Source: a virus
Lineage: Duplodnaviria > Heunggongvirae > Uroviricota > Caudoviricetes
Length of the DNA: 64,000 nucleotides
IMG/VR virus record: IMGVR_UViG_3300050011_000047
Location: 14,132-78,131 of that record
Strand: one strand, 5' to 3'
A model generated the notes under the pieces. That model ran no database searches. It saw only the letters and a program-made list of their open reading frames with translations, and was not told the origin of the DNA. This document shows positions 2,566-37,123 of this stretch, piece by piece. The position numbers and the translations under genes were made by a program. The number at the start of each line of letters is the position of its first letter. Position 1 is the first letter of the stretch.

Positions 2566-3383
2566 GTCGCGCAGTCTTCCTCCCGACTCCGGGCGATCCG
2601 TTCCTTGTCTCGTATTGGCTGCGTGAGTATGCGGCATGGAAGCAGCACACGGATCGGCTCTACGTCCACATGTCATTCCCTCAGGAGCCGGAAGTAGCCG
2701 AACGTCTCCGCGCGGACATCGAGGCCGCAGGCGGCGTGTGTGTTCTTCCGCCCGACGTTGTGCCTCGCGAGCACGGTCAGGCGCTCAACGCGCTGCTCGA
2801 TCAGTGCGAGGAGGATGTCGTGTTCATGTGCGAGGACGACCTCTACATCCGCAATCCCGAGATGGTGCGTCGATACTTCGAGCGCGTCGAGGCGCAAAGC
2901 ACAGTGATCGGGCGTCCTCGTGGCTCGATGTCGATGGAGATTGTCAACGCGCTGCACAGTCAGTACCCACAGGGTGCGGGCCTGTGGCCGTTCTTATTCG
3001 CACGTGTCGAAGACCTCCGCCGACTGAGTGAGCCGTTCGGTGCTCGTTGGTGGGCCGCAGGCGAGACGATCAAGGGCGTGAACTACACGTGCATCGAGGC
3101 GTGCAATGCAGACACGTTCGGCGCGGCGTCGATGGAACTTCGCGGGCTTGTGCCGGTCGAGGTCGGAGAGAGCGAGCAGCGCGGTGGGTGGCATCACGCG
3201 GGCAGTCTCTCCTCCGGGCCGTACACAAAGGACTACGAGCATGTGCGCGCGGCGGCATTCTCGTGGCGAGTCCGAGTCGGGTGGTGGGAGAAGTTCCACG
3301 CCACATGGCCGGGAGGACTCCCGGAGCAGTACGCGGCCTACGGTCAGGCGCTCGACCGCCTCCATGCTACTCTCCGGTCATGA
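2562..3383 (+). CDS. hypothetical protein of the glycosylation cassette (possible DxD-type sugar transferase)
   Basis: GTG start overlaps the upstream TGA (GTGA). Translation has VVFMCEDDLYI (DxD-like). No firm family assignment. Confidence 0.4.
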   Translation: MSRAVFLPTPGDPFLVSYWLREYAAWKQHTDRLYVHMSFPQEPEVAERLRADIEAAGGVCVLPPDVVPREHGQALNALLDQCEEDVVFMCEDDLYIRNPEMVRRYFERVEAQSTVIGRPRGSMSMEIVNALHSQYPQGAGLWPFLFARVEDLRRLSEPFGARWWAAGETIKGVNYTCIEACNADTFGAASMELRGLVPVEVGESEQRGGWHHAGSLSSGPYTKDYEHVRAAAFSWRVRVGWWEKFHATWPGGLPEQYAAYGQALDRLHATLRS

Positions 3384-4021
3384 GCATCGTCACCTTCCCG
3401 TCCGGGCTCAAGTGGGATGTCCGGGATGACACGACTGATTGGAACACCGTCTACGCTGCCGGTGCCGACGGCGATGAGTACGGGCTCACCGGGGTGAATG
3501 TAAACGAGGCGCTCGTCTTCGACATTGGATCACACATCGGCGGGTGTGGGGTGTGGCTCGCTACTCGGAATGCGCGAGTCGTGTTCGTGGAGCCGATCCC
3601 GGAGAACGTCGAGGGGATCAGGCGCAACCTCTATCTCAACGGAGCGCATGCGCTTGGCATCGTGGAAGCAGCCGTCGGGACGGATCGCATCTGTCTCGGC
3701 CCGCCGGGAGATGCGCACGAGTACATCGGCGGTATGACCGGCGTATCTGACGACGACTCCCGTTGGCTCAATGTCGGGCGCACGACGTTCGACAAACTCG
3801 CTCAACGCTATGGCGTGCCGGACATCGTGAAGATCGACTGCGAGGGAGGCGAATGGGAAGTGCTGCGTAGCGTGAACATCCGCGCCGTTCCGCTCATCGT
3901 GGGCGAGTATCACCCGCTCGACGCCTATCGCGGCCCGAACATCGCGGTCATGCTTCCCGATCACGACGTGACCATCGGAGAGAGTCCCGATCTTGGCGGC
4001 TTCCGCGCGGTGCGCCGATGA
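3380..4021 (+). CDS. FkbM-family SAM-dependent methyltransferase
   Basis: ATGA overlap with the upstream gene. VFDIGSHIGGCGVWLA ... VKIDCEGGEWEVL are hallmark FkbM motifs. Confidence 0.6.
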   Translation: MSIVTFPSGLKWDVRDDTTDWNTVYAAGADGDEYGLTGVNVNEALVFDIGSHIGGCGVWLATRNARVVFVEPIPENVEGIRRNLYLNGAHALGIVEAAVGTDRICLGPPGDAHEYIGGMTGVSDDDSRWLNVGRTTFDKLAQRYGVPDIVKIDCEGGEWEVLRSVNIRAVPLIVGEYHPLDAYRGPNIAVMLPDHDVTIGESPDLGGFRAVRR

Positions 4022-19033: not shown

Positions 19034-20158
19034 ATGCGCCTGCATCTTGTCTCGCTCCCACACACTGAAACGACCTCGGAGTACATGACCTGCGCCTACA
19101 CGCAGAAGGTGGTCAAGTTCTCGAAGATGATGGTCGAACAGGGGCACGAGGTCTTCCTCTACGCGGGCACGCGCAACGAAGCCATCTGCTCGGAGCACAT
19201 CGAGGTCATCACCGAGGAGGAGCGGCTCGGGTGGTACGGCAAGTGGGACACGAACAAACCACCGGACGTGGATTGGTCACCCGATCAACTTCCATGGGGC
19301 GTCATGGCTGCACGCACTGTTCGCTCGATCAAGAAGCGCCGTGAACCGGGCGACATTCTCTGTATGGTCGCAGGTTGGTCGCAGCAGGCTATTTCCAAGG
19401 CGCTCCCGCAGTTGCTTCCTCTTGAGTGGGCTGTCGGCTACGAGGGCATCCACCACCAATACCGCGTGTTCGAGTCGTATGCGTGGATGCACCACGTCTA
19501 CGGACTCACCGGCAACAAGGGATGGGACTACAACACAATCGCCTATGACACGGTGATCCCCAACTTCTTCGACCCCGTGGACTTCCACACCGCGCCGGAC
19601 AAGGACGACTACCTCCTGTTCATCGGCAGGCTTGTTCGACGCAAGGGGCCAGACGCAGCCGCACGCATCGCTGCGCTCACAGGACGCAAACTCATCGTGG
19701 CCGGGCCGGGTGCGAAGGCGCTCATGCCGGGGCGGATCATTGCCGAGGATGTCGTCATCGAGGGCGATGTTGAGTACGTGGGTGCAGTAGGCGCGGACGA
19801 ACGTGCCGAACTCATGTCCCGCGCGGCAGCGTGCATTGTGCCGACGCTGTACGTCGAACCGTTCGGCGGCGTGGCGGTCGAGGCGATGATGTGCGGCACG
19901 CCCGTCGTCGCGACTGATTGGGGCGCGTTCCCGGAGACGGTGCAGACGGGCATCTCGGGCTACCGCTTCCGCACGCTGCGCGAGGGCGCACGCGCAGTCG
20001 AGAAGGCAGTCCTCCTCGATACACAGGCCGTGTCGGACTACGCCCATCGGCGGTACAGCATCGACGCCGTAGGCCCGATGTTCTCGGAGCACTTCGAGCG
20101 CCTTCAAGAACTGTGGGACGAAGGCGGGTGGTTCGCATCGCGGTCTTTGACGGACTGA
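19034..20158 (+). CDS. glycosyltransferase family 1 (GT4-like) embedded among tail-fibre genes
   Basis: ...FIGRLVRRKGPD...LIVAGPG...EPFGGVAVEAMMCGTPVVATDWGAFPETVQTGISGYRF is a GT4 C-terminal signature. Confidence 0.6.
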   Translation: MRLHLVSLPHTETTSEYMTCAYTQKVVKFSKMMVEQGHEVFLYAGTRNEAICSEHIEVITEEERLGWYGKWDTNKPPDVDWSPDQLPWGVMAARTVRSIKKRREPGDILCMVAGWSQQAISKALPQLLPLEWAVGYEGIHHQYRVFESYAWMHHVYGLTGNKGWDYNTIAYDTVIPNFFDPVDFHTAPDKDDYLLFIGRLVRRKGPDAAARIAALTGRKLIVAGPGAKALMPGRIIAEDVVIEGDVEYVGAVGADERAELMSRAAACIVPTLYVEPFGGVAVEAMMCGTPVVATDWGAFPETVQTGISGYRFRTLREGARAVEKAVLLDTQAVSDYAHRRYSIDAVGPMFSEHFERLQELWDEGGWFASRSLTD

Positions 20159-22037: not shown

Positions 22038-23756
22038 GACGCACCCGATCCTAAGAAGGTACGCGCAGCCGTCGAAAAGGCCAAGGAGGGCTCCGACGGC
22101 AAGGTGCTCAAGGTACTCTACCTCGACGCGCAGGGTGAGCCCGCAGGCGATTGGGCCTCGACGCAGTTGCCCGAGAATCCGTGGGAGACTGTGCAGGCCA
22201 CCACGCAGTTGATCGAGCCCCCGTTCCCTATGGGGCAGTTGACCTTCCTCGCGGAGATGCACCCGGTGCATTCATCGGCGCTCGAACAGAAGGCAGCGGA
22301 CGTGTGCGGCAAGGGATGGGAATGGATCGCGGATGATCCCGATGTAGCAGACGAAGACCTCCGTGACGAGATGGAGGACTGGTTCCAGTCGCTTGCACCG
22401 GACGAGTTCGACATGCGCGAACTCGTCAACACCGCGTGGCTCGATGAGGAGACGACCGGGTGGGGACTGCTCGAATGCGCACGTGATCCGCAGGGAGTCG
22501 TGCAGCGGCTCTACCACGTGCCCGCGCACACGGTCAAGACGCACAAGAACGGGTTTGCTCTCTGCCAGGTGCGCGACTCGCGCAAGATGTGGTTCCGTAG
22601 GTGGGGCTCCACTGACATCGCCGGGAAGCCGGTCGAGGTCAACATGCGCAACGGCTCAATCACGAACGTGCCGGAGGATCAGCGCGCGAACGACCTTCTC
22701 GTCATCAAGCGCCCGTCGCGGCGATCCACGTGGTACGGCATCCCCGGCTACATCTCCGCAATCGGATGGATCACGCTCGCGCTCGCAGCACGCGATGACA
22801 ACCTGTACTTCTTCTCCAACCGCCGCGAGCCCCGTTGGGCGATCATCCTCACCGGTATGGCCGAGGATACCGAGATTGAGGAAGATCTCCGGCGCGCGTT
22901 CACCGTGGACATGAAGCAGCCGTACCGAAATGTCATGGTACCGGTCGCAGGCAAGGACGCGAAGGTCACCTTCCAAGAGTTGTCGTCCACGGCGAAGGAC
23001 GGCTCGTTCGGGAACCTCGGGGATCGCGCCGACAAGGCCATCATGGTCGCACACCGCGTGCCCGCCGAGCGTCTTGCGAACTCCCAGGTTGGCGCTCTCG
23101 GCGGCAACGTCGCGTCCGAGTCGAACCGCGTCTACAAGGAAGGCGTCGTCGCTCCCGCGCAGGAGGTTCTCAACTCGCGCCTCAATCGCTTCATCGCGGT
23201 CGAGTTTGCCAAGTACAAGAATCAGGAGTACAAGAAGGGCGACAAGTCGATGTGGCTTCTCAAGATGGATGACCTCGACATCCGCTCCGACCGCGAGGAC
23301 ATGGATCAGGCGCTCATCCTGTTCCACGGCGATATGATTACGCTCCGGGAAGCGCGTCATCGGCTCGGCCTCGGCCCACTCATGAAGCCGAAGCCGGTCG
23401 CACAGAAGAACCCGGATGGTACGCCGAAGACGAACCCTGACCCGATCACGGGTGAGCCGACGCAGGTCTTCGGCCCGCCGATCCCCGGCGTAGACGACGA
23501 GGAGAACCCGGCAGTGGACATCAACGGCAACCCCGTACCGCCTGAGGAAGTCGAGTCCGAGTTCAATGACATGTTGTTCTCGCAGTTGCCGGGCGCGAGC
23601 GGTCAGGCCGGGCTCCCCGGTGGCGCTCCGCCTACCGGCACCGGCAAGTTGACGCCGGAAGTGAACAAGGCGCTCGCGTCTGACGTGCGTGAACTGCTCC
23701 GTTCATCCTACGCGACACATGATCGTATCGCGCGGATGGCCGGAGATGACGGCTAG
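22035..23756 (+). CDS. portal protein
   Basis: 573 aa with an acidic C-terminus, immediately upstream of and overlapping a MuF-like gene (canonical portal-MuF pairing). Assignment is by size and context. Confidence 0.55.
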   Translation: MDAPDPKKVRAAVEKAKEGSDGKVLKVLYLDAQGEPAGDWASTQLPENPWETVQATTQLIEPPFPMGQLTFLAEMHPVHSSALEQKAADVCGKGWEWIADDPDVADEDLRDEMEDWFQSLAPDEFDMRELVNTAWLDEETTGWGLLECARDPQGVVQRLYHVPAHTVKTHKNGFALCQVRDSRKMWFRRWGSTDIAGKPVEVNMRNGSITNVPEDQRANDLLVIKRPSRRSTWYGIPGYISAIGWITLALAARDDNLYFFSNRREPRWAIILTGMAEDTEIEEDLRRAFTVDMKQPYRNVMVPVAGKDAKVTFQELSSTAKDGSFGNLGDRADKAIMVAHRVPAERLANSQVGALGGNVASESNRVYKEGVVAPAQEVLNSRLNRFIAVEFAKYKNQEYKKGDKSMWLLKMDDLDIRSDREDMDQALILFHGDMITLREARHRLGLGPLMKPKPVAQKNPDGTPKTNPDPITGEPTQVFGPPIPGVDDEENPAVDINGNPVPPEEVESEFNDMLFSQLPGASGQAGLPGGAPPTGTGKLTPEVNKALASDVRELLRSSYATHDRIARMAGDDG

Positions 23757-26700
23757 CGCACTAGACCTCTCCGCCGAGCATCTCCGTCAGGTCGAGGAGT
23801 TGTACCTTCGCATCCGCGAGGCGGGGATCGAAGCCGACGCAGGCAGTGATGATCTTCTCGCACTCTCGCGCGAGCACAAGCGGCGCGTGAAGCATCTGTT
23901 CCTCGCGGTCGAGAAGATGCGGCGCAGCCCGCACCGGCAGGCCGTCCATGAGAAGTCGCACGCGCAGCGGCTCGCGCTTGAGCAGGTGTGGACGCAGCGG
24001 CTCCGGCTCCTCTCCGACCATCTCGTCAACGGCTTCGACATCGACGGGGCCTACGAGGTAGCCCGGCGGGCGTGGGTCACCCCGGCGGACGAGCCCCACG
24101 ACGGCATCTACGTGGACGAGCATGCGCCGGGGCGGCTCAAGAAGGCTCTCACGCCGCCGAAGAAGTCTGACCTCTCGGTGGTCGAGCACTGGCCCGGCAA
24201 GCGCGGGACGGCGGCTCGACTTGCGCTCAAGAGGGCGGCGACTACCGAGGGCGTCGAGGCGCTCGTGCTCCGCGACTCGACCGGCAACCCGATTGCCGTC
24301 GCAGCGGTCAAGGCGAGCCCCGGCGACCTGCACGTGGAGTTCCTTGCATCCGAGCCCGGCAAGGGCGCACAGATGATGCAGGAGTTGGCGAAGGTGGCGA
24401 AGAAGACCGGCTCCGGGCTCTCCCTGTTCTCTGTCCCCGAGGCGGCGCAGTTCTACGATGGGATCGGGATGGCGGCAGGCGACCGCGCCGGGCAGTACAT
24501 CATGACCCCTGCGCAGACGGCGGCATTCGCGGTGACCGGCGGCATTCTTCCTCCGGCGGGCTCGAAGGCGGCGGGTATGACCAAAACCGAGCAGGCAGGT
24601 GTGCAGCAGTTGATGCTCAACGCGATCCAGTCGAGCGGGACACCTGGCAGCGCCGACGTGAAGCGGGCACTCTCATCGGTCGAGAATCAGGCAGCATGGG
24701 AGCGCGGCGCGGCGACGCAGTACCTCGGGCTCGCGGTGCAGACGGCGGAGCAGGCCGGGCAGGTGGCGCTCGATCATCTCGGACTCCACAAGACGTTCGA
24801 GTTCGCGAACCCGCAGACGATGGTGGGCGACGCGACGGCGGTGCGCGGCTCGAAGGTGATTCAGTCCATGTACGGGGCGCACGTCGATGCGCTTACGAAC
24901 ATCATCACGGACGCCACTAACCCGGCAGCGCCGCAAACCATCGCGCAAGTCAAGGCGTCGATCCGCGAGCAGTGGCCGAAGTTGCAGACGTATCAGGTCG
25001 AGCGGATCGCACGCACGGAGACGGCGGCGGTGTGGATGTCCACGAGCGCGAACGCCTACGCGGCGAACGGCATCTCGCAGTTCGAGACTATCGTCGCCAC
25101 CGGCCCAAGCATCGGCGTCGAGAGCGAAGACCCGTGCGACGAGTGTGTGGCGGCGGCAGAGGACGTGCACTCGCTCGATGACGACCTCCCGCCGTGGCAC
25201 CCAAATGCGGTGCTTGGAGGTTCTACGTTTCTATCTTACGGTGAACCGCTCGAAGCGGTTCGTGCGCGCTACCGTGGCCTTTCCGTACTCATCCGTGCGG
25301 GGGAGCACGTGCTTACCATCGGGCCTAACCACCCGGTGATGACCCGGCGCGGGATGGTGCCTGCAAATCAGATTCGCGAAGGTGACGAGTTGGTCTACGA
25401 CAGACGCGCTAATCGGCAGGAAGGCGCGATACGCGCTATCACATCGGACATCGAAGACGTGCCACTCGTCGAGGATGCGTTCACGGCGCTCCTGTCTACG
25501 GGCACGTATGCGACCGTTCCCGTGACCCCCGATGATCTCCACTGCGACGGGGTATTCTGCGAGGGCGAAGTCGATGTTGTAAGGCCCGACGGCAACCTGC
25601 TGGCGGTACTCGATCCCCGAGGCATCAAGGAGATGCGCGAAGTCGCGTTCGAGGCTTCCAGCGCCGAGTACCCTCAACTCTCTCGTTTTCGCGCGAGCCT
25701 CACGCCGAGAGAGCGGGTCGATGTTTCCACGTCGAGCCTCGTGGCAGGCCATGAATCGCTTAGGTTTATTCGAGTCATTCATGTGGACTTTGTGGACTTC
25801 GAGGGATGGGCGTTCGATTTCTCGGTACAGGGTGGGATGTATCTCAGTAATGGCTTTATGGTATCAAACTGTCGATGCGAGGCCGTGCCGGTACTGGAGG
25901 ACACGGACGGCACGCCATGGCTTCCGCCGGACGAACCGTGGACGGGCGGCGGCGACGGCTCCGGTGACATGGCACCGGGCACATTGTTCGAGCCGATGCC
26001 TCCACCGGAGCAACTCGCGATGGAGTTTGCGCCGGGCACGGTTGCGCCGTCGGCGGACATCTTGCTCAAAGGCTCGCTTGCGCAGCAGACGGTGCAGGAA
26101 GAACTCGGCAACATCGGGCGCGTGCATCAAATCCCCGATCACGTTGATGTGCCTTCGGTCAAGGGCGCGGTACACAACTCCTACTCACCCGATGAGAACC
26201 GCATCTTCCTCAATCCTCGTCCCGCCGAAGGCGAGTATCTCAAGGGCACGAGCGTTGTTCACGAGTACGGGCACTTCGTGCAAGAGCAGCGTGTCGTCTC
26301 AATGAACGATCAGATTGCCGTGTCCGATATGGCCGAGGCCACGCCGGAGTGGGCGTCGTTCGAGCGGTACGACCAACAACCGAACGAGTTGTTCTCCCGC
26401 GTGTATCAGCAGTGGATCGCAACCAAGAACGCGGACGAAGTGAAGTTGGCGTTCTACAAGGCGCAAGGCAAGTTTTGGTCACCCGAGTCGTTCAAGCCTC
26501 TCGGCGCGAAGATGGATGAGGTCTTCGCTCCGCTCATGAAGCCGAAGTTCCCGGACGGCTCACCCAAACTCCCGGAGAAGACGCCCGACGCAGCGCCCGC
26601 ACCGAAGGCGGAGGAGTTCCCCGCACCACTCGTGATCGACGCTGCGACGTGGACTGAGAAGAAGGTAATCGAGACACTCGCGCCGTTCGAGGGACGCACC

Positions 26701-29700
26701 GTTCGCCTGACGGGCCAGGGGTTCAAGGGGCACGAGTACACGATGGAGGGCGAGTACAAGTTCGACAAGGAATCAGGCTACCCGCTCGTTGGGGATCGCA
26801 CCATCGGCACCGGCACGGACATGGTGCACGTCGAAGTGCAAGACTCCGGCGGCGCGTGGCACACGATTGCGGAGAAGCCGTTGTCCGAGCGTGCGCCGGT
26901 CGAGCCCGAGCCGACGTTCTCGAAGCCCGACGCACTCCCCACGTATTCGGGCAAGACCGTGGAACTGTCCGAGCGGTACAAACTCAAGGTGCCGAACAAG
27001 GAGTTGAAGGCGTCGGTCACGACGGCGCTCGATGACATCGCGAGCCGGATTAAACTCCCGGAGGAAGCACGCCCTGTGGACGTTACGCCGGGCTCCGGCA
27101 TGTCGTCAAACTTCACGCCCGCAGGTGTGCAGCGCGGTGTTGTCAAGGGTGCACGCATTCGTATCTCCACGAATCGCGGTACGCAATCGCATTTCGACCG
27201 CATCGACTCGACCTATCATGAATACGGGCACTACCTCGATTGGACGGGCCTTGGCGGCGCGGATGGTTGGGCGGGCACGCGGTACGGCTCCGAGTACGCA
27301 GCCGACATGAAACCGCTCATGCAGGCGTTCTTCGACTCGCCCGAGTACAAGCAGTGGCGCGACATCTACTCCGGTAAGTTCAAGCCCGGTGAGGGTGTCT
27401 ACGCGCCCAAGAGTCATGCTCGCTACATGAAGTCGAACGTCGAGTTGTTCGCTCGCGGCTTCGCGCAGTACATGTCCGAGGTCACTGGCAACGCGGAGTA
27501 CCGCGCGTTCGTGGCCGATCACGTCCCGCTTGAGAAGGGCGGGTGGTATTGGACGCCGGAGAACTTCGCGCCGATCAAGGACGAGTTCGACAGGTTGTTT
27601 GAGAAGCGAGGTCTACTCAAGGAGACGCCACCCGCGCCCGAGCCGTTGCCCGCACCTACACCCGAGCCCCTCGCGCCGGAGACGCCCGCGTTCGCGCCCA
27701 AGGAGCCGCTCACGCAAGATCAGCAGTTGGCCGTCAACGACTACACCGGCAGAGGCGGCGAGGGGCAGGAGGGCTACCTACGCACGAACCGTTGGCTCCG
27801 TGGGCTCAAGCAGACACACGGCGACCCGCTCGCGACGATCAAGAACCGCGTCGAGCATCTCGATGCAGCCATCGAGAGCGCGGCCCCGCTCGCGACGCCG
27901 ACGACCGTGTGGCGCGGTATCGGTAACTCTGAGTTCTATGGTGGCGGCGGCACGCTCAAGGTCGGTCAAGTGATCGAAGACCCGGCCTACCTCTCGACCT
28001 CTTCGACGCCGAAACTTCCGACCTCGTGGGCGGGCACTCACGGCGACCTGTGGGAAATCAAACTGCCGAAGGGGATGAAGGGCCTCGACGTGAACGCGGC
28101 CCTCAAGGACACACCCTACGGCCCACACGGGCTCGATCCGGCCACGACCAAGGAGGGCGAGATTATCCTCCCACGCAACACGCGCCTCGTGGTGGACGCG
28201 ATCAAGGAGCGTGTCACGACATACCCGAACGGGAACCGCGTGGTCGCACACGACGTTACAGCGCACGTGGAGAGCATCCCCGAGTTGCGCCCGCCGACGC
28301 CGGTCAAGGAGAACATCCCCGATCCGAACCCGGCAACTCCGCCACCGCCCCCGCCTCCGCCCCCGCCTCCGCCACCGGCACCCACTCCGGTGCATCCGAC
28401 GACTCCCGAGGCAACACCGGCCTCCACGACGAACAACCCGCCCCTCCCCGAGTGGCACGACTTCACGACGCCCTCCGGGCTCGAAGCCGGGCTCGCACAC
28501 TACGAGGGCAAGCAGGTGCGTCTGACGTTCACGTTCCCGAGCGGAGCAACTAAGAAGTTCACCGGGCTCGTTGAGCGCAACTCACGCGGGCAGATGATGG
28601 TGGATCGTTCGACGTTCCGCGAGTCAGCCGTCCCGAACATCACGGGCGTCGAGGTCAAGGTCGGCAGTCGCTTCAAGCCGTGGAAGGAATACGAGCGTAT
28701 GACGCCCGAGCAGCAGAATCCCGCGCCTCCGAAGCAGCGCACGGCATCCGGTTCGTCAGAGAAGCCGGTACCCGAGGGCGGTTACACGTTCCCGGACAAC
28801 GTACCGAGCGGTGTCCTCGGTGACGTACCGGCAACGCCGATCTTCGAGAACGTCGCGCATGCACAGGCGTTCGCAGAGAGGTACCTCGCACGTGAGGTCT
28901 ACCTCGGAAAGAACCCGGAACTCAAGGGCGTGCAAGAGGCGCTCGATGCGATGGCGCAAGTGCTGCGCCCGTTCGACTTGAAGATCGAGCGGTTGCAGGT
29001 CGAGCATGATCCGCGCTCCTCGGGGCTCGCGTACTACTCCTCGAATGCCACGAAGAAGATGCTCATTGACGGCAAGAAGCAGTATTGGTCAGGCGAACTC
29101 ATCCGCGCGCAGGCGCAGTTGTTCTCGAAGTCCAAGGCGGCGGCGGTGGGTGACAACCAAGCAGTGTTCGAGGCGAACAAGGCGAAGGAGATTCGCACGC
29201 GCGAGGACTGGATCGCACAGGCGGAAGAACGCCACACGTCACCCGAGAAGATCGCGCAGTACCGTCGTGAGATTGCCAACTTGGAAGCGGCGAAGCGGTG
29301 GTACATCGCGGCGGTTGATGGCGGTGCTGACGCCACCAAGGCGTTCATGTCGCACGAGGCTGCGCACATGCTCTCGCGTAACTTCGGACATGAAATCGCC
29401 GGAGTCAGCATCACGGAGGCGGGGCTCGCGCCGATCTTCACCACGCGACTTGAGTTGCACGGCGTCACGCAGGAGGAGCGTTGGTCAGTCTCGCAATACG
29501 GCGCGAGCGGCGACAAGGCGCGACAGGCTCAAAACTCGGAGTTGTTCGCAGAGGTTACGGCGGCGAAGATCAGCGGGCACTATGACCTCGTGCCCCTCAA
29601 CATCCGCGAGGCATACGAGGAGACGCTCGGCTACATCACGCAGGCTGACATCGAGGCGAAGGCAGCGGCGAACAAGGCCCGAGATGCGGCGGTCGAGGCG

Positions 29701-29757
29701 AAGCGCGTACAGAAGGCCGGGCTCGAATCGGTGCGCAAGCGGGTTGGGCTACACTAG
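23746..29757 (+). CDS. giant MuF-like virion protein: MuF domain interrupted by an intein, two HEYGH zincin-like motifs, an ADP-ribosyltransferase-like domain, a poly-Pro linker and a C-terminal domain
   Basis: ATG 23746 after CCGGAG. Translation has ERIARTETAAVW...DLPPWHPN[221 aa]CRCE (Mu F signature PPxHPNCRC split); TSVVHEYGHF and STYHEYGHY; ...TTVWRGIGN...AYLSTSS...KEGEIILPR (R/STS/ExE); [14 protein letters not shown]. Confidence 0.7.
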   Translation: MTASALDLSAEHLRQVEELYLRIREAGIEADAGSDDLLALSREHKRRVKHLFLAVEKMRRSPHRQAVHEKSHAQRLALEQVWTQRLRLLSDHLVNGFDIDGAYEVARRAWVTPADEPHDGIYVDEHAPGRLKKALTPPKKSDLSVVEHWPGKRGTAARLALKRAATTEGVEALVLRDSTGNPIAVAAVKASPGDLHVEFLASEPGKGAQMMQELAKVAKKTGSGLSLFSVPEAAQFYDGIGMAAGDRAGQYIMTPAQTAAFAVTGGILPPAGSKAAGMTKTEQAGVQQLMLNAIQSSGTPGSADVKRALSSVENQAAWERGAATQYLGLAVQTAEQAGQVALDHLGLHKTFEFANPQTMVGDATAVRGSKVIQSMYGAHVDALTNIITDATNPAAPQTIAQVKASIREQWPKLQTYQVERIARTETAAVWMSTSANAYAANGISQFETIVATGPSIGVESEDPCDECVAAAEDVHSLDDDLPPWHPNAVLGGSTFLSYGEPLEAVRARYRGLSVLIRAGEHVLTIGPNHPVMTRRGMVPANQIREGDELVYDRRANRQEGAIRAITSDIEDVPLVEDAFTALLSTGTYATVPVTPDDLHCDGVFCEGEVDVVRPDGNLLAVLDPRGIKEMREVAFEASSAEYPQLSRFRASLTPRERVDVSTSSLVAGHESLRFIRVIHVDFVDFEGWAFDFSVQGGMYLSNGFMVSNCRCEAVPVLEDTDGTPWLPPDEPWTGGGDGSGDMAPGTLFEPMPPPEQLAMEFAPGTVAPSADILLKGSLAQQTVQEELGNIGRVHQIPDHVDVPSVKGAVHNSYSPDENRIFLNPRPAEGEYLKGTSVVHEYGHFVQEQRVVSMNDQIAVSDMAEATPEWASFERYDQQPNELFSRVYQQWIATKNADEVKLAFYKAQGKFWSPESFKPLGAKMDEVFAPLMKPKFPDGSPKLPEKTPDAAPAPKAEEFPAPLVIDAATWTEKKVIETLAPFEGRTVRLTGQGFKGHEYTMEGEYKFDKESGYPLVGDRTIGTGTDMVHVEVQDSGGAWHTIAEKPLSERAPVEPEPTFSKPDALPTYSGKTVELSERYKLKVPNKELKASVTTALDDIASRIKLPEEARPVDVTPGSGMSSNFTPAGVQRGVVKGARIRISTNRGTQSHFDRIDSTYHEYGHYLDWTGLGGADGWAGTRYGSEYAADMKPLMQAFFDSPEYKQWRDIYSGKFKPGEGVYAPKSHARYMKSNVELFARGFAQYMSEVTGNAEYRAFVADHVPLEKGGWYWTPENFAPIKDEFDRLFEKRGLLKETPPAPEPLPAPTPEPLAPETPAFAPKEPLTQDQQLAVNDYTGRGGEGQEGYLRTNRWLRGLKQTHGDPLATIKNRVEHLDAAIESAAPLATPTTVWRGIGNSEFYGGGGTLKVGQVIEDPAYLSTSSTPKLPTSWAGTHGDLWEIKLPKGMKGLDVNAALKDTPYGPHGLDPATTKEGEIILPRNTRLVVDAIKERVTTYPNGNRVVAHDVTAHVESIPELRPPTPVKENIPDPNPATPPPPPPPPPPPPPAPTPVHPTTPEATPASTTNNPPLPEWHDFTTPSGLEAGLAHYEGKQVRLTFTFPSGATKKFTGLVERNSRGQMMVDRSTFRESAVPNITGVEVKVGSRFKPWKEYERMTPEQQNPAPPKQRTASGSSEKPVPEGGYTFPDNVPSGVLGDVPATPIFENVAHAQAFAERYLAREVYLGKNPELKGVQEALDAMAQVLRPFDLKIERLQVEHDPRSSGLAYYSSNATKKMLIDGKKQYWSGELIRAQAQLFSKSKAAAVGDNQAVFEANKAKEIRTREDWIAQAEERHTSPEKIAQYRREIANLEAAKRWYIAAVDGGADATKAFMSHEAAHMLSRNFGHEIAGVSITEAGLAPIFTTRLELHGVTQEERWSVSQYGASGDKARQAQNSELFAEVTAAKISGHYDLVPLNIREAYEETLGYITQADIEAKAAANKARDAAVEAKRVQKAGLESVRKRVGLH
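25207..25869 (+). other. putative mini-intein (221 aa) inserted between N and C of the MuF HPN/CRC motif
   Basis: Begins AVLGGSTFLSYGE (Ala1). Block B-like LTIGPNHPV (TxxH). C-terminal ...GMYLSNGFMVSN followed by Cys +1. Local GC is lower than the flanking extein. Confidence 0.5.
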
Positions 29758-31444: not shown

Positions 31445-31474
31445 GTCAAGTTTTCTCGCACAAAAACTTATCAC
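31445..31474. promoter_or_regulatory. operator-like site (family member b): GTCAAGTTTTCTCGCACAAAAACTTATCAC
   Basis: Imperfect inverted repeat CAAGTTTT / AAAACTT around a GCA centre, closely matching 9387-9416. Confidence 0.4.
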
Positions 31475-31507
31475 ACCGGAGCCCCTTTTTACGCGGGGGC
31501 TCCGGTG
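31474..31507 (-). terminator. rho-independent terminator for the ftsH-SPFH transcript
   Basis: 12-bp perfect stem CACCGGAGCCCC / GGGGCTCCGGTG. On the minus-strand RNA it is followed by UGAUAAGUUUUUG. Confidence 0.5.
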
Positions 31508-31520
31508 CAAAAAGCATTGG

Positions 31521-32465
31521 TTACGGGTATGTAGAACTCCCCGGCGTGGATGGGACATTGAGGAACGGGATAACGCCTGTGCTAGAGCCGACAAGCGTGC
31601 TCGGCAGGATGCCGTTCCACCTGACGTAGTACTGCCATGACAGGAGTAGAGCCGTCACGGATGCGGCGACTAGTTTGTTCGCCTTGGCCTGCGCCGTTGC
31701 TTTGATGAGCACCGAGCGAGCCGTCGCCTCAGCGTTGATGATAGTCTGCGCCTTGAGAGCGCGCTTGGCGGCGATCAGGTTCTCTTGCTGTAACGCCTGT
31801 TGATGCGCGATGATCTTGGCCTTGACGGCTGCGACGAACGCCGGATCGAAGATCGCGTCCTCGATGTTGACGTAATCGACCACGATGCCGTAGCCCTTGA
31901 GTTGATCGGTCAACTGACCCTGAATCGTCAGTGCGAGCGCGTCCCGCTCCTTGGCGAAGTCGATGGCCTGAATCTGACCAACCGCCGCCTTGGTGCGCTG
32001 GTAGAGCGCAGGCTGAATGACCGTGCTCGCGTACTGCAAGCCGATGCGCTGGTACAGGAACGGGGCCTTGGCCGGATCAACGTGGTAGTTGACCGAGGCC
32101 ACGACGGTGATTTCCTGCAAGTCTGCGGACTGCGCGAACACCTTGTCCGAGTACAACTTCTGCGTTCGCACGGACATCACCGTGAGATGCTGTAGCCACG
32201 GCAGAAGAAATGAGACACCCTCGCCACGCGGCGTCTGTTGGACGCCGCCGTTCCACTGGAAGATCACGCCCCTGTATCCTGCGGGGACGACGCCGATGGC
32301 AGGCACGATCAGGAAGGACGCGAGCACGGACACCGCTGCCCTCCGTAGTGCGCGCTTAACGACGGGTGCATCCTTGCGATGCCGGAATGCCTGCACCAAG
32401 AAGAAGACGGCGACGCCTCCGAACATGGCCCAAATCACCGGCTGTATGAGAGCCGCGTAAGTCAT
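31521..32465 (-). CDS. SPFH/band-7 (stomatin/prohibitin/HflK/C-like) membrane protein
   Basis: N-terminal TM, then ...GYRGVIFQWNGGV...LTVMSVRTQ...EITVVASVNYHV... (SPFH core) and a coiled-coil AEATARSVLIKATAQAKANKL. Strong AAGGAGG SD. Confidence 0.65.
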   Translation of the reverse strand: MTYAALIQPVIWAMFGGVAVFFLVQAFRHRKDAPVVKRALRRAAVSVLASFLIVPAIGVVPAGYRGVIFQWNGGVQQTPRGEGVSFLLPWLQHLTVMSVRTQKLYSDKVFAQSADLQEITVVASVNYHVDPAKAPFLYQRIGLQYASTVIQPALYQRTKAAVGQIQAIDFAKERDALALTIQGQLTDQLKGYGIVVDYVNIEDAIFDPAFVAAVKAKIIAHQQALQQENLIAAKRALKAQTIINAEATARSVLIKATAQAKANKLVAASVTALLLSWQYYVRWNGILPSTLVGSSTGVIPFLNVPSTPGSSTYP

Positions 32466-32477
32466 ACTGCCTCCTTC

Positions 32478-32993
32478 TTAGTTTCCATAGCGAGGAACGC
32501 TATGGGTTGGATTGTTGGTGCGAGAGTTACCACCGTGGCCTCCGGTGCGTGAGTTACCACCGCTGTTAGTGCCGGTACCGGAGAGTGCAAAAGTGTTCGG
32601 GTACGGACGCGCACGATTCCATGCGTTCGTGATGTTGCCGTCGTATGTCGGCCAATACTCGTTCGTCTGCAAGATGCCGATGCACGCAACCTTGGTGCCC
32701 TGCCATCCGTTGTCCACGACGGCCTGACAGAAGGAGCCCTGCACGACACCCATGTCCGGCTTGTCGGACATCACCTTGGCGCGCTGCACGCGGCACATCG
32801 CCGCGAGGTTTGCATCTCCCACTCCTTGCGACTTCATGAAGGAGTCGCCTGAGCAATACCCTTGGAGTTGACTATCAGCAAGCCGCACAAGATTCGCGTC
32901 GTATGGTGGGATGAAGCCGACCGGCATCGCGATATAGACGAACCCGAGGATGATCGTAAGGGCTCCTGCGAGCCCGAGTAACTTACGGCTCAT
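32478..32993 (-). CDS. membrane-anchored/secreted hypothetical protein between ftsH and the SPFH gene
   Basis: MSRKLLGLAGALTIILGFVYIAMPVGF... (TM), Cys-containing ectodomain, Gly/Asn/Ser-rich tail. ATGA overlap with the ftsH stop. Confidence 0.45.
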   Translation of the reverse strand: MSRKLLGLAGALTIILGFVYIAMPVGFIPPYDANLVRLADSQLQGYCSGDSFMKSQGVGDANLAAMCRVQRAKVMSDKPDMGVVQGSFCQAVVDNGWQGTKVACIGILQTNEYWPTYDGNITNAWNRARPYPNTFALSGTGTNSGGNSRTGGHGGNSRTNNPTHSVPRYGN

Positions 32994-34978
32994 GACTCGA
33001 AGCCCCCGAGTAGGTTGTGAATCTCGTCGCCGGTCACAGTGCCCTCATCGTACAGGAGCCGGGCGACGGCCTCGATGTCGTCCTTGTGCGCCGTGAGCAG
33101 CGTGCGGCAGGCTTCGAGCGCCTCAGCGAGAATACCCTCGGCCTGCTTCTGCACCAAGCGGTTGTCCGCAGGGTAGACGCCAATCTGAGAAGCGAGCCCG
33201 TAGCCGACCATGCGCACCGCGTCCTGTGTGGCACTTGCGGCGTCTCCGCCATGCCCGTTGGTTGTGGTACCGATAAGGAGTTGCTCGGCCACGCGGGAGG
33301 CAAGACTCACCTGAATGTCGGCAAGCAACTCGGCGCGTGTCATAAGCCAATCCTCATGCAACGGGGTCGGCGCAACCATGCCGCCCGTCTCCCCTCGGCG
33401 CTCGATGCTCGCGAACCAAATGTGCTGCCTCGTGCGGCAGAGGAGATGGAAGGCTACTGCGTGCCCGGCCTCGTGGACGGCGACGTTCCAGCGGGCTTCC
33501 TCGCGCTCGAAGGGGCCATCGGACTCCCCGAAGCGTGTCCACAGCATCGCGTGCATTAGGTCGTAGAAGCGCACAATGCCGGGGTCATCCCGTTCGTCCC
33601 GGAAACTAACGAGCAACGCCTCGTTCACGATGTCCTGAATCTCGGCTCCGGTGCCTCGCGCGTGGTTGCGCGCGGCCCATTCGATGTTCGCAGGGGTGAG
33701 GTCATTCGTGACCTTACGAAGGTAGCCCTCATACGTCCGGCGGCGACCATCGACCTTCGGGAAGGTGACGTGAATCTTGCGCCCGAACCGCCCGGCGCGG
33801 AGCAGCGCGGGGTCGAGGCGATCCATCATGTTCGTTGCGCCGATCATGAGATACTTGTACTCATACGGAGCCATAGGCTTGAACCCGGCAAAGACGAGAA
33901 GACGATTCAACGGGCCACGCGGCTCCTCCATCCCGTCCATCGCGGAGAGGAACGCTTCGAGGGTACCCATGCCGCCGCCACCGCCGCCGACCACGATGCT
34001 GCGCGTATCGTCAGACGCGGCAGGACGACTAAACGGCACGCATCCGGGCGCTCGACATTCTGCCGGAGCGGCCCCGAGTACATCCCCGCCACGTGAGCCG
34101 AGAGAGTCAATCTCGTCAATGAACACGATGACGCCACCGTAGCGCCGAGCCAACTTGCGAATCTCGCGGAACAGAGTCCACACCTTGAGCAAGTTGATGC
34201 CGACGAACGTCGCTTGGAACGCGCCCGGAGGCACGAGGATGAGCGGCTTCGAGGAGTAGTTCGCCGCTGCCTTCGCGAGATACGTCTTTCCGGTACCCGG
34301 CGGCCCGTAGAGAAGTAGGCCCTTCGGCATGTACCCGCCAGCCGCCTCGATGTGGTCGGAGTCTTCAAGCAGTTTCACCTGTTCCATAACCTTCTGCTTG
34401 GCGTCGTCCTGACCCCACACGTCATCGAACGTGACATTGACTGTGCCGGGCATGACGACCTTGTATGAGCCGACCTTGACCATCGCATAGAACATGATCC
34501 CGAGTTGGAATAATGTCAGCGCAACCATCACGGCGAACTGTATGAACATCGGGAGGTTCTCGACCGCGAGACGGGGCGCGAGGATGACGCACTGTATCGC
34601 GCTTGAGCAGCGCGTGGTGAGTGCGTTGACCATCATGCCAAAGACGTAGAGGGCTAGCAGCCAAGTTGCCACACGCTGCACCTTCAACCACGATTGCTTC
34701 GAGACTACAGCCGCACGCAATCGGGCTCGCTTTTCAACCCTTGCGGTCTTCGCTACCCAACTCTCATCGACTTCCAAGCGCGCGTGGTGGAACTCGCGCA
34801 GCACGAGGAAGGCGAGAGCGAAGATGGCTAGGCGTGCAGGGAACGAAATGGAGAACGGGAACGGTGATGCCCACTCGCTCGCGGCCACATACGCGATGAT
34901 GATGACCGGAAGTTTGACCCGCTCGAAGAACGGCTTAGGTGGGCGTAGCGCTATGGGGCGCTTCTCAACTTCACTCAT
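32990..34978 (-). CDS. ftsH: FtsH-like membrane AAA+ zinc metalloprotease
   Basis: N-terminal TM segments. Walker A LLYGPPGTGKT, Walker B VIVFIDEIDS, second region of homology ATNMMDRLDPALLRAGRFGRKIHV, zinc site HEAGHAVAFH. Start ATG 34978 preferred over TTG 35014. Confidence 0.75.
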   Translation of the reverse strand: MSEVEKRPIALRPPKPFFERVKLPVIIIAYVAASEWASPFPFSISFPARLAIFALAFLVLREFHHARLEVDESWVAKTARVEKRARLRAAVVSKQSWLKVQRVATWLLALYVFGMMVNALTTRCSSAIQCVILAPRLAVENLPMFIQFAVMVALTLFQLGIMFYAMVKVGSYKVVMPGTVNVTFDDVWGQDDAKQKVMEQVKLLEDSDHIEAAGGYMPKGLLLYGPPGTGKTYLAKAAANYSSKPLILVPPGAFQATFVGINLLKVWTLFREIRKLARRYGGVIVFIDEIDSLGSRGGDVLGAAPAECRAPGCVPFSRPAASDDTRSIVVGGGGGGMGTLEAFLSAMDGMEEPRGPLNRLLVFAGFKPMAPYEYKYLMIGATNMMDRLDPALLRAGRFGRKIHVTFPKVDGRRRTYEGYLRKVTNDLTPANIEWAARNHARGTGAEIQDIVNEALLVSFRDERDDPGIVRFYDLMHAMLWTRFGESDGPFEREEARWNVAVHEAGHAVAFHLLCRTRQHIWFASIERRGETGGMVAPTPLHEDWLMTRAELLADIQVSLASRVAEQLLIGTTTNGHGGDAASATQDAVRMVGYGLASQIGVYPADNRLVQKQAEGILAEALEACRTLLTAHKDDIEAVARLLYDEGTVTGDEIHNLLGGFES

Positions 34979-35000
34979 GAGTCGCAGTGTAGCGGAAGTT

Positions 35001-35027
35001 GCGGCCCCCTGCAAGGCAAGGGGCCGC
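35001..35027. other. 8-bp GC hairpin GCGGCCCC...GGGGCCGC between the holin-like gene and ftsH
   Basis: Read directly. No U-tract follows. Confidence 0.3.
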
Positions 35028-35041
35028 GTGGCTCCGGCTGG

Positions 35042-35395
35042 TTACGGGGCCTGTATTTCGGGGGCCGCAACCGGGGCGGGTGCCTCGGCAGCAGGTACGG
35101 CAGCAGGTACGACAAGAACCTTGGCCGTATCGACGCCTGCCTTGTTGGCCGACGTGAGCGCCTCGACTGCCTTCACGATGTCGGCAACCGACGGCTGCAC
35201 GGGCTCGGGTGTGTTGAGGAACCCGTTGGCCTTCACGAGCAGGAACTTACCGACGGCAAGTGCGCCCGCAGTGAGGCCCGTGTAGAGTGCCGTCTTCTCA
35301 TTCGCGGAGCCATGCTGCGCGATGAGCACGGCAAGGAATCCCTGCGCGAACGTGGCGAAGGTGCGCTCCACGAGGTCGATGAGGTACTTCTTCAT
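35042..35395 (-). CDS. putative holin-like small membrane protein
   Basis: MKKYLIDLVERTFATFAQGFLAVLIAQHG...LTAGALAVGKFLLV... has two hydrophobic segments and an Ala/Pro-rich tail. Holin assignment is tentative. Confidence 0.35.
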   Translation of the reverse strand: MKKYLIDLVERTFATFAQGFLAVLIAQHGSANEKTALYTGLTAGALAVGKFLLVKANGFLNTPEPVQPSVADIVKAVEALTSANKAGVDTAKVLVVPAAVPAAEAPAPVAAPEIQAP

Positions 35396-35408
35396 GTGTG
35401 TCCTCCTC

Positions 35409-35819
35409 TCAAGAATCGGAGTGTTCGTTCCGTCGGGCCATCTTACCACGCCCGCTTCTCGTGTGGCGCAAACACTTACACTTAGGTGGGCATTTCCTAC
35501 TGCGAGAATGTGGCAAGTCCTTAGGGAAGGCTTCGAGTTGCTTCTTTCGTTCCGGGTGGCAGACGAATCTGAGAAGAAGAAGTGCGGCTTGGGATGCCTC
35601 CTTGCCCCGTACAGCGTAGTCCCACCTAGGACTTCGTTTGTAGCGGTCATGCCCGTAACTGTCCGGCACAAATGGGCCACGGACTTCTCCGCCCAAAATA
35701 GCCTTTAGACGAAGGAGCGGCTTCTCATGTATTTGAGATACACGCAACCGATTTCCTTGGAGGTCAACACTTCCCTCACCATCGAAGAAGCCTGCGGCCC
35801 AAGCGATTTCAGTGTCCAC
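35409..35819 (-). CDS. LAGLIDADG-family homing endonuclease (paralogue 2)
   Basis: MDTEIAWAAGFFDGEGSVDL... In a low-GC island (~35400-35850). Confidence 0.6.
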   Translation of the reverse strand: MDTEIAWAAGFFDGEGSVDLQGNRLRVSQIHEKPLLRLKAILGGEVRGPFVPDSYGHDRYKRSPRWDYAVRGKEASQAALLLLRFVCHPERKKQLEAFPKDLPHSRSRKCPPKCKCLRHTRSGRGKMARRNEHSDS

Positions 35820-36462
35820 GATTTACAATCTTTGCGCGTAGAGATTCGTCACGAACATGAAGGTAGACCTCCGTCGTGGCAATGTTGGCGTGCCGGAGGA
35901 GCCGCTGTACCTCGTGGAGAGGGAAGCCGTCCTCGATCAGTTCGGTGGCGTATGTATGGCGAAAGACATGTGGCGTCACGATGCCATATATCTTAGCAGA
36001 TTTCTTGAGCCGGAGCACGAGCCGCTGCACGTAGCGCACGGTGACCGGCGTGCCGTCGGGGTTGACGATCAGCGGCAGCGTCGGGTCAGCGTCCGGCCCG
36101 AGCCACTCCTTGCGCTGCGCGAGGTAGGCGTCGAGTGTCGGGAGGATGGCGTCCGGCGTGAAGTACGCGGTGCCGTCGCCTCCCTTCGCATCGTACAGGT
36201 GGATCACGCCATCGCGCTCAACGTCGCGCGGGCGTGTGGCTACCGCCTCAGATACTCGGAGTCCTGCTCGGTACATGAGCAAGAGGAGAAGCACGTTGCG
36301 CTTCGCCTCGCGCGTTCCGTTGTCCGCGAGTGCGAGCAGTTCGGTGGCTTCTCGCCGCGAGAGGACTTTCGGTAACTTCTTCTTTTTGCGCTTCTTTGTA
36401 GGGCTTGGCTCGTCGCCTTGGGCTGGCATGACATGTCCTGGGCTGGCATGTAAATCGATCAC
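35809..36462 (-). CDS. short tyrosine recombinase (integrase/Xer-like catalytic domain only)
   Basis: ...GLRVSE... (box I Arg), HVFRHTYAT (HxxR), LLRHANI, TTEVYLHV (Tyr). Lys-rich N-terminus PTKKRKKKKLP. Start region carries the tandem duplication GGGCTGGCATG...GGGCTGGCATG. Confidence 0.55.
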   Translation of the reverse strand: MIDLHASPGHVMPAQGDEPSPTKKRKKKKLPKVLSRREATELLALADNGTREAKRNVLLLLLMYRAGLRVSEAVATRPRDVERDGVIHLYDAKGGDGTAYFTPDAILPTLDAYLAQRKEWLGPDADPTLPLIVNPDGTPVTVRYVQRLVLRLKKSAKIYGIVTPHVFRHTYATELIEDGFPLHEVQRLLRHANIATTEVYLHVRDESLRAKIVNRGH

Positions 36463-36478
36463 ACCCTCATTGTACGTG

Positions 36479-37123
36479 CTAACGGTCGGCGGTGACGCGC
36501 TTGGCGAGTGCCTTCTCGTCCGCCGTGTAGCGCACCGTCTTGACCGACGAAATCTTGCCGCCGACGAACGGAGTCATCTCCGTCGCAGCGGTGATCGCGC
36601 GAGTGGCGATGCCTACCAAGTCCTTGTCCGGGATCGGCAGACGTGCTTCGCGCTTCGATTTCCCTGCGGTGAGTTCACCGTGCATCGAGCCCGTTGCAGT
36701 TTCCCCGCCCGAGCCGATGGAGTCGAACGGGTAGATGTGCTCGTCCACACCGAAGTCCGACCACACGGTGAACAAGCGCCCACGCACCGCGAGCATGAAC
36801 GCACTCGGGCCGAACTCCTCGACGTTGTGGTAGATGTGCAGGTGGCCGTGATCCTCCATCAACTGCCGGATGTACGGGATGAAGTCACGCACGATCCACC
36901 GATGCTCGTCCATTCCGAGCGGCGGATCATCGAGCGAGTCCATCAAGTGATGTTGAAGAATCTGCCCGAACCGACCTGAGCCGCAGTAGCCGACGGCAAG
37001 CACATCCGAAAGTTGAAAGACCTTGGGCGAGACATCTTCGCGCTTCGTCCACTCCGTCGATCCTTGCGCATCCCCTGCGATGAGGACACCCTTTTCACCA
37101 ACGAGTCCGACGATGCATGTCAT
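36479..37123 (-). CDS. HslV/20S-proteasome-beta-like Ntn-hydrolase peptidase
   Basis: MTCIVGLVGEKGVLIAGDAQGS (HslV: MTTIVSV...IAGDGQ, Thr at position 2) and ...SIGSGGETATGSMHG (HslV GSGG). Confidence 0.55.
   Translation of the reverse strand: MTCIVGLVGEKGVLIAGDAQGSTEWTKREDVSPKVFQLSDVLAVGYCGSGRFGQILQHHLMDSLDDPPLGMDEHRWIVRDFIPYIRQLMEDHGHLHIYHNVEEFGPSAFMLAVRGRLFTVWSDFGVDEHIYPFDSIGSGGETATGSMHGELTAGKSKREARLPIPDKDLVGIATRAITAATEMTPFVGGKISSVKTVRYTADEKALAKRVTADR

Follow-up and report, generated by a model that had tools for sequence, protein, structure and literature searches.

The window analyzed here is a stretch of 64,000 nucleotides (nt) of tailed-phage DNA (IMG/VR record IMGVR_UViG_3300050011_000047, positions 14,132 to 78,131; Caudoviricetes). 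Its minus strand carries three adjacent genes that encode, in the order of transcription, an FtsH-like AAA+/M41 zinc protease of 662 amino acids (aa; 32990-34978), a 171-aa membrane protein without family match, named TM171 (32478-32993), and a prohibitin-like SPFH/Band-7 protein of 314 aa (31521-32465). As judged from sequence comparison, these three genes are a real, discrete and co-inherited accessory unit that travels among tailed phages, called the cassette below. By its gene content and by analogy with cellular systems, the cassette probably encodes a phage-made membrane AAA protease complex enclosed by the SPFH protein. A preliminary description of the window had grouped these genes together with an HslV-like peptidase into one proteolysis module. 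The four open reading frames (ORFs) are all present on the minus strand where it had placed them, and the coupling that it proposed between FtsH and SPFH, together with a membrane protein, is borne out as a genetic linkage in which TM171 is the conserved third partner.

A survey of co-occurrence, proposed in that description, recovered the FtsH-TM171-SPFH genes in the same order and on the same strand in about 27 independent loci of metagenomic phages, at FtsH identities down to 38%. The order is kept in the IMG/VR loci L001-L003 and in a 146-kb contig (L084), as well as in L086, L087, and L088, in which the FtsH identity is 50, 38, and 46%, respectively; in L086, the cassette adjoins a terminase gene. 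The FtsH stop and the TM171 start overlap by 4 nt both in the window and in L084, and the SPFH start follows TM171 by 12 nt in the window. In the gene calls of L088, the two junctions are overlaps of 35 nt (FtsH/TM171) and 4 nt (TM171/SPFH). Starting from the TM171 motifs, 20 metagenome contigs were found independently. FtsH lies upstream in 12 of the 14 that have more than about 300 nt of upstream sequence, and SPFH lies downstream in all 15 with room for it. TM171 is located between FtsH and SPFH in every cassette locus with room. The names of some source contigs point to groundwater (Hainich) samples.

The flanking genes are unrelated between lineages, and no conserved fourth gene was found upstream or downstream of the cassette in the other loci compared. 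The pairwise-identity matrices of the FtsH-like, TM171, and SPFH proteins correlate with one another (r = 0.75-0.88). A hidden Markov model of the cassette SPFH clade, able to detect E. coli HflC, gave no match in the fetched flanks (up to 10 kb on each side) of 159 other FtsH loci, namely 77 viral and 80 cellular loci and two from cultured phages. A natural "deletion" comparator is provided by the contig L192 (ena:ERZ27254036 k141_338951), which shares with the window a backbone of exonuclease, HslV-like, recombinase, polyvalent protein, and portal genes and is devoid of the FtsH-TM171-SPFH cassette, of a LAGLIDADG ORF and of a holin-like gene. Because L192 has the backbone and HslV without the cassette, the cassette is regarded as an accessory insert and HslV as a backbone gene.

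The ORF of the protease (32990-35014) extends to a TTG at 35014 and matches Pfam AAA (6.4e-23) and Peptidase_M41 (6.8e-23). The start is most likely the ATG at 34978, in agreement with the family alignment and with the database protein P0001, to which the resulting 662-aa product is identical. In an alignment of 43 homologues (37-87% identity), the Walker A motif G225-P-x-G-x-G-K231, the Walker B residues D288-E289, sensor-1 N383, the Arg fingers R394 and R397, and the pore-1 residue F258 are invariant, and pore-1 G260 is kept in at least 90% of the sequences. The zinc-site residues H502-E503-x-x-H506 and D579 are also invariant. D579 aligns with the Asp of the "NDIERAT" segment of T. maritima FtsH, which we take to be the third zinc ligand. 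Sequence matches in the PDB are FtsH and AFG3L2. The AlphaFold2 (AF2) model, with a predicted local distance difference test (pLDDT) score of 83, retrieves FtsH, AFG3L2, and YME1 in Foldseek (E = 1e-29 to 1e-25, target-normalised TM-score 0.75-0.80). The HEAGH motif is thus set in an M41 context, with the H-E-x-x-H and third-ligand Asp aligned, the Pfam peptidase domain matched and the FtsH fold recovered. By alignment and predicted structure, the protein is a bona fide M41 AAA+ protease with intact catalytic residues.

This protease is nevertheless, on the same kind of comparison, a divergent and unorthodox FtsH subfamily. It had been described as a full FtsH with two transmembrane (TM) helices, Walker A/B motifs, a second region of homology, and HEAGH; the motifs hold across the homologues, but about four TM helices are predicted within the first 170 residues instead of two. 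The outer loops between them are short, about 8 and 20 residues in length, and two invariant Cys lie in the second. The canonical anchor, in which two TM helices surround a folded periplasmic domain, is thus not found, and Pfam detects no FtsH_ext (periplasmic) domain. The score against the FtsH equivalog TIGR01241 is 242 bits, below the 600-bit cut-off. The AAA module carries two insertions, of which one (residues 298-334) is disordered and follows Walker B, and both are otherwise found only in a paralogue from Acidimicrobiales. Clustered at 90% identity, the family forms at least 120 groups with identities of 35-100%; all are metagenomic and bear only generic automatic names. Intein-like insertions of about 320-340 aa, different in the two cases, interrupt the homologues P0007 (999 aa) and P0016 (1005 aa). 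One of these insertions has a LAGLIDADG_3 match and is sited after the HEAGH region; the other stands directly before the pore-1 loop TF[VI]G. Such selfish elements thus occupy the most conserved sites of the phage protease.

The second gene product, TM171, starts with a basic stretch and one strong TM helix, and its predicted topology is single-pass with the N-terminus in and the C-terminus out. The AF2 model shows a compact, all-helical extracytoplasmic domain with a core pLDDT above 90. In an alignment of 34 sequences, four Cys and several motifs are invariant, and the domain bears the motifs PPYDANLVRLAE, YWPTYDG, and WNRARPYP. No match was obtained in Pfam, PHROG, NCBIfam, or PADLOC, nor in 50,697 records of cultured phages. 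An NfeD-type partner of SPFH proteins is not what was found either, with no NfeD-domain match in Pfam and an all-helical model. TM171 is a new protein family, without a known family or fold. A profile search of 1.84 billion representatives returned 84 clusters at 50% identity, nearly all of 150-190 aa and the remainder shorter fragments. The same set contained no credible fused "Rosetta-stone" protein; a 398-aa match was rejected as a fusion, as it matches only a short repeated stretch. The C-terminal tail of TM171 is disordered. It retains an invariant RTG, extended to SRTG in at least 90% of the sequences, and in the window (32478-32600, minus strand) this R-T-G lies inside an otherwise variable Gly/Ser/Asn-rich stretch. 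This R-T-G may act as a short linear motif for binding or processing.

The third gene product belongs to the SPFH proteins (Pfam Band_7, 5e-33; phrog_200). Two N-terminal hydrophobic TM helices are joined by a loop with seven basic residues, and because of this basic loop the positive-inside rule predicts the SPFH domain and the coiled coil outside the cytoplasm. Orthologues display this two-helix arrangement too, or have one N-in helix that leads to the same topology. The expected architecture is therefore present, with an N-terminal anchor and an SPFH/Band-7 domain and coiled coil that are predicted to face outward. The best PDB matches are prohibitin-2 (5.9e-24, residues 52-258) and prohibitin-1 (1.4e-21), followed by stomatin (3e-5), and the prohibitin similarity covers both the SPFH domain and the coiled coil. 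No HflK/C chain is among these PDB matches, and the scores against the HflK and HflC equivalogs (24.7 and 20.7 bits) are far below the cut-offs of 159.4 and 134.4. All loci read have one SPFH gene per cassette, where HflK/C has two paralogues. The protein, first labelled "SPFH (HflK/C-like)", keeps the first half of that label and loses the second: its sequence is prohibitin-like, not HflK/C-like.

Taken as a machine, the cassette suggests the following assembly. The FtsH-like protein would be an ATP-driven hexameric zinc protease on a four-TM anchor, with its catalytic chambers facing the cytoplasm. The SPFH protein would oligomerise around the protease into a membrane ring or cage, with its SPFH and coiled-coil parts outward. 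TM171 would hold a disulfide-stabilised outward domain on its single TM helix and would supply the contact between protease and cage or gate the entry of substrates. During infection, the complex would pull selected host or phage proteins out of the membrane and degrade them. The placing of TM171 as an extracytoplasmic link or gate is proposed because the phage FtsH exposes almost nothing outside and because both proteins carry invariant Cys on the predicted outer side. These Cys, together with the N-in helix of TM171, fit an oxidising extracytoplasmic side. The closeness of the SPFH protein to prohibitins, which are partners of m-AAA proteases, also supports the complex. Plausible roles are the removal of host membrane proteins such as defence effectors or receptors, the control of lysis timing, or a benefit to a lysogen. 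The host takeover and the influence on lysis-lysogeny regulators suggested in the preliminary description would be speculative roles. A bolder version, possible but not likely, makes TM171 a new obligate adaptor that would join the prohibitin-like cage to the FtsH lacking a periplasmic domain, the whole being a self-contained phage compartment that would degrade specific host membrane proteins (defence effectors, receptors, transporters) in the course of infection.

Several points weigh against such a complex. The linkage between the protease and the SPFH protein is genetic; synteny and co-inheritance establish that the function is common to the three proteins, but a common complex need not follow. 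E. coli FtsH contacts HflK/C through its periplasmic domain, so that the geometry of a phage FtsH devoid of this domain must differ from that of FtsH-HflK/C. The cassette also has a single SPFH gene, whereas HflK/C and PHB1/2 are heteromeric. Finally, two short TM171-seeded contigs (L170 and L173) show no FtsH in their 270-670 nt of upstream sequence; the insertion of small ORFs, known from L002, L086, L087, and L178, may account for this gap.

The main rival to the complex is a shared task without physical association, in which SPFH and TM171 would act on the membrane, stabilising or reorganising it in a flotillin- or PspA-like manner and delaying premature lysis, and FtsH would separately clear damaged or unwanted proteins. 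Stand-alone SPFH genes are indeed common in cultured phages without FtsH, jumbo phages carry a stand-alone FtsH among chaperone and protease genes without SPFH (PMC6892783), and a holin-like gene lies just upstream of the cassette in the window. We nevertheless consider this rival unlikely, since the strict synteny with overlapping stop and start codons extends over the roughly 27 loci down to 38% identity, the trio is co-inherited, and members of the TM171 family were never seen fused or, where context is available, outside the trio. Linkage as tight as this is typical of the subunits of one machine. A further proposal addresses the biological role and does not conflict with the SPFH-enclosed protease: the cassette would be moron-type cargo, of use to a lysogen or against competitors, and expressed from a prophage for superinfection exclusion or defence (degrading incoming phage proteins or receptors) or for stress tolerance of the kind conferred by horizontally acquired FtsH xenologues. 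It draws on the presence or absence of the cassette between syntenic phages, on its position at the end of an operon with a strong hairpin of its own, on a tyrosine recombinase nearby in the window and in L182, and on the precedent of an FtsH xenologue that is mobile, resides on a genomic island and differs in its substrates (PMC6629908, PMC10850787). This role appears rather improbable: the recombinase is short and reduced to its catalytic domain, no attachment site was found, the cassette is in line with replication genes, and a scan of 185,579 species genomes for prophage copies gave no relative above 38% identity among the matches listed. A PADLOC defence scan gave only a generic AAA similarity to IetA, and an anti-phage defence system was rejected on this ground.

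The two remaining alternatives are weaker. In the four-part module of the preliminary description, an orphan HslV-like peptidase would act with FtsH, the membrane protein, and SPFH. All four genes do lie on one strand within 5.6 kb in the window and in three near-identical contigs (L081-L083), and the catalytic residues are intact in both the HslV-like and the FtsH-like proteins. The HslV-like protein of 214 aa (36479-37123, minus strand) matches Pfam Proteasome (PF00227, E = 6.6e-6, 26.3 bits for a cut-off of 22.4) and phrog_1040 "peptidase HslV family" (E = 1.2e-18), and it has Thr1 (after Met removal), Asp17, and Lys33 at their canonical positions, together with a G-S-G motif. Conservation of the nucleophile, a point on which the peptidase reading had been made to depend, is found in its homologues: of 33, 29 have Thr and three have Ser at position 2, D18, K34, G137, and G139 are invariant, and the catalytic residues align. 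However, HslV is found beside the cassette only in the window and these near-identical contigs, and none was seen near it (within 10 kb or the shorter stretch available) at the other cassette loci. Homologues with 65-76% identity occur in L190-L192, with no cassette within 10 kb, and in L191 and L192 HslV follows the exonuclease as in the window, which marks it as a backbone gene. Three unrelated genes, moreover, separate HslV from FtsH, and HslV-like genes are annotated in 203 records of cultured phages, all without the cassette. A joint four-part module is thus very unlikely; the HslV-like peptidase is a separate backbone gene of an already known kind, outside the cassette. No HslU-like gene was seen among the window ORFs scanned, which were a part of the total. 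Least probable of all is that the cassette consists of cellular genes mis-binned as viral or recently captured from a host without a phage-specific role. The Acidimicrobiales FtsH paralogue, with the family-specific insertions and 38% identity, speaks for it; portal, terminase, tail, and replication genes surround the cassette in the window and its relatives, however, the cellular paralogue lacks the Cys loop and has neither SPFH nor TM171 in its vicinity, and the family, with identities of 35-100%, is deep and was found in phage-like surroundings wherever context was read.

Several known systems resemble an SPFH-enclosed protease. In E. coli, an SPFH cage of HflK/C around FtsH controls the access of membrane substrates (PMC12048511). 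This system and the cassette both associate a membrane AAA+/M41 protease with an outward SPFH protein, and the catalytic motifs and fold are common to both. They differ in that the cassette genes are adjacent and phage-borne, that one prohibitin-like SPFH gene replaces two, that the FtsH has about four TM helices and no periplasmic domain, and that an extra, obligate, small Cys-rich protein is present. In E. coli, hflK-hflC belong to the hfq-hflX-hflK-hflC region and ftsH lies elsewhere. The mitochondrial prohibitin ring complexes with m-AAA proteases are another established partnership (PMC12624060). Likeness to PHB1/PHB2 and their m-AAA partners (AFG3L2/Yta10-12) lies in the phage SPFH protein, which is closest to prohibitins, and in the protease model, which superposes best on AFG3L2 and FtsH. 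The cassette differs by being prokaryotic-viral, with a single SPFH paralogue, another membrane anchor and the added TM171.

Among phages, SPFH (phrog_200) and HslV-like (phrog_1040) genes that stand alone belong to the same domain families and are carried singly, without the trio. Prokaryotic stomatin-NfeD (STOPP) operons combine an SPFH gene with a membrane protein or a protease partner. Such operons are mentioned in PMC2644673; the cassette partners, in contrast, are an FtsH-type protease and a helical Cys-rich protein, with no NfeD match. A mobile second FtsH whose substrate range is narrower than that of the housekeeping enzyme is known as PaFtsH2 from a genomic island of P. aeruginosa clone C (PMC6629908, PMC10850787), but this island is bacterial rather than phage-borne, the enzyme is built like a canonical FtsH, and no SPFH or TM171 partners dedicated to it are reported. 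An FtsH homologue was also reported once, as a curiosity, in the jumbo Pseudomonas phages MIJ3 and PA5oct (PMC6892783). It is only about 26% identical to the cassette FtsH, is of another lineage and lacks SPFH and TM171 neighbours. In MIJ3 (LR588166.1, 78751-88148), this gene lies in a host-like proteostasis and stress cluster with ibpB, clpS, sodB, and clpP.

SPFH or prohibitin-like genes are annotated, singly, in 35 records of cultured phages, and the FtsH-TM171-SPFH trio was found in none of the cultured records. Literature searches aimed at an FtsH-SPFH pairing in phages found no description of one, only single-gene annotations and the MIJ3 report. FtsH, SPFH, and HslV-like genes are thus known singly in phages, and the trio with TM171 is new, on the theme of an SPFH-caged AAA protease. 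The earlier suggestion that this was not a described phage module is accordingly right for the trio, which was found in no cultured record or searched paper, and wrong for HslV, given its many annotated records. The closest cellular relative of the protease among the matches listed is a chromosomal FtsH paralogue in metagenome-assembled genomes of Acidimicrobiales, with 38% identity. This paralogue (L089, 9545-12112 of JAUJNH010000003.1) shares both family-specific AAA insertions, has no Cys loop, and is surrounded by GroEL, chlorite-dismutase-family, and GGDEF-EAL genes, with neither SPFH nor TM171 among its neighbours. It may be the sister, on the cellular side, of the phage protease or the source from which that protease came. 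Together with the glycosyltransferase and FkbM-methyltransferase genes of these phages, it hints at an actinobacterial connection. Another FtsH match, in the record of "Microcystis phage MaAM05" (MW495066.1, 197521-206876), is flanked by glgX, proS, and lepA; this region resembles a bacterial chromosome, and the record may be mis-assembled or contaminated.

SPFH cages on FtsH-type proteases are conserved from bacteria to mitochondria, and how they recruit or gate substrates is debated. A compact viral version, with one SPFH protein, an FtsH without a periplasmic domain and a 171-aa partner encoded side by side, would be tractable for reconstitution and cryo-electron microscopy. If the complex exists, phages would manipulate membrane proteostasis with a machine of their own and not only through the host FtsH. 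If TM171 is in addition an adaptor, the cassette would be a minimal, portable SPFH-AAA protease supercomplex that has spread among phages. The trio also gives the TM171 family its first genomic context and hence a testable function, and the separation of the HslV-like peptidase prevents a misleading annotation as a four-part proteolysis module. The components themselves are familiar; a viral SPFH-FtsH unit that is portable and includes a new partner is noteworthy and experimentally attractive.

The window, with a G+C content of 62-65%, comes from an uncultured siphovirus-type phage. Plus-strand genes up to about 29.8 kb encode tail proteins, a siphovirus Dit, a portal, and a 2022-aa polyvalent protein, and minus-strand genes from about 30 kb encode an exonuclease, a PD-(D/E)XK nuclease, an SNF2 helicase, a DNA polymerase, and a primase. 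No tRNA was found in the window. A near-identity DNA search of 50,697 GenBank phage records gave no near match to it, and its sequence is also present on a 92-kb metagenomic contig.

The transcription order on the minus strand is HslV-like peptidase, recombinase, LAGLIDADG-like ORF, holin-like gene, FtsH, TM171, and SPFH; the preliminary description had named the HslV-like, FtsH, membrane-protein, and SPFH genes and overlooked the three genes between HslV and FtsH. The first of these (35809-36462) is a short tyrosine recombinase, recognised by Pfam, PHROG, and NCBIfam. Of 206-217 aa, it consists of the catalytic domain only, and its XerC/XerD likeness (1e-37) is far below the cut-offs. The recombinase adjoins the HslV-like gene in L192 too (60% identity). 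The LAGLIDADG-like ORF (35409-35819; Pfam E = 3.7e-4, phrog_5046 E = 1e-6) is free-standing and takes up precisely the space that separates the recombinase from the holin-like gene. It lies upstream of the cassette at a distance of about 400 nt, and the gene caller on the identical contig L081 left it uncalled. It could help the cassette to spread by homing. The holin-like two-TM protein (35042-35395) is supported by Pfam, PHROG, and NCBIfam matches and by the gene calls of L081. No homologue of the recombinase, the LAGLIDADG ORF, or the holin-like gene was found beside the cassette in other loci, and the latter two were rejected as cassette members for this lack of conservation.

Directly 3' of the SPFH stop codon, a G+C-rich hairpin (31474-31507, minus strand) was identified from sequence and folding. 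Its stem of 12-15 bp is very stable (-34.1 kcal/mol, z = -5.5), and none of 200 shuffled sequences folds equally well. It had been called a clean intrinsic terminator; the hairpin is real, but its form departs from the consensus, with a loop of 10 nt and a T5 run that begins 7 nt past the stem. These two features explain why it is not among the sites listed by a consensus terminator scan. The hairpin is probably the 3' end or terminator of the cassette transcript.

Two further features of the plus strand deserve mention. The polyvalent protein (23689-29757) contains an ADP-ribosyltransferase domain (aa 1338-1509, E = 2.8e-14) and an LPD1 domain, and its stretch PPWHPN/AVLGG...MVSN/CRCEAVP resembles a mini-intein splitting a MuF-type HPNCRC motif. 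Glycosyltransferase, PIG-L deacetylase, and FkbM-type methyltransferase genes are located at 857-4021 and 19034-20158; they recur in other phages with the cassette or the HslV-like gene (L084, L086, and L190) and may serve in the glycan modification of the virion or the cell surface.

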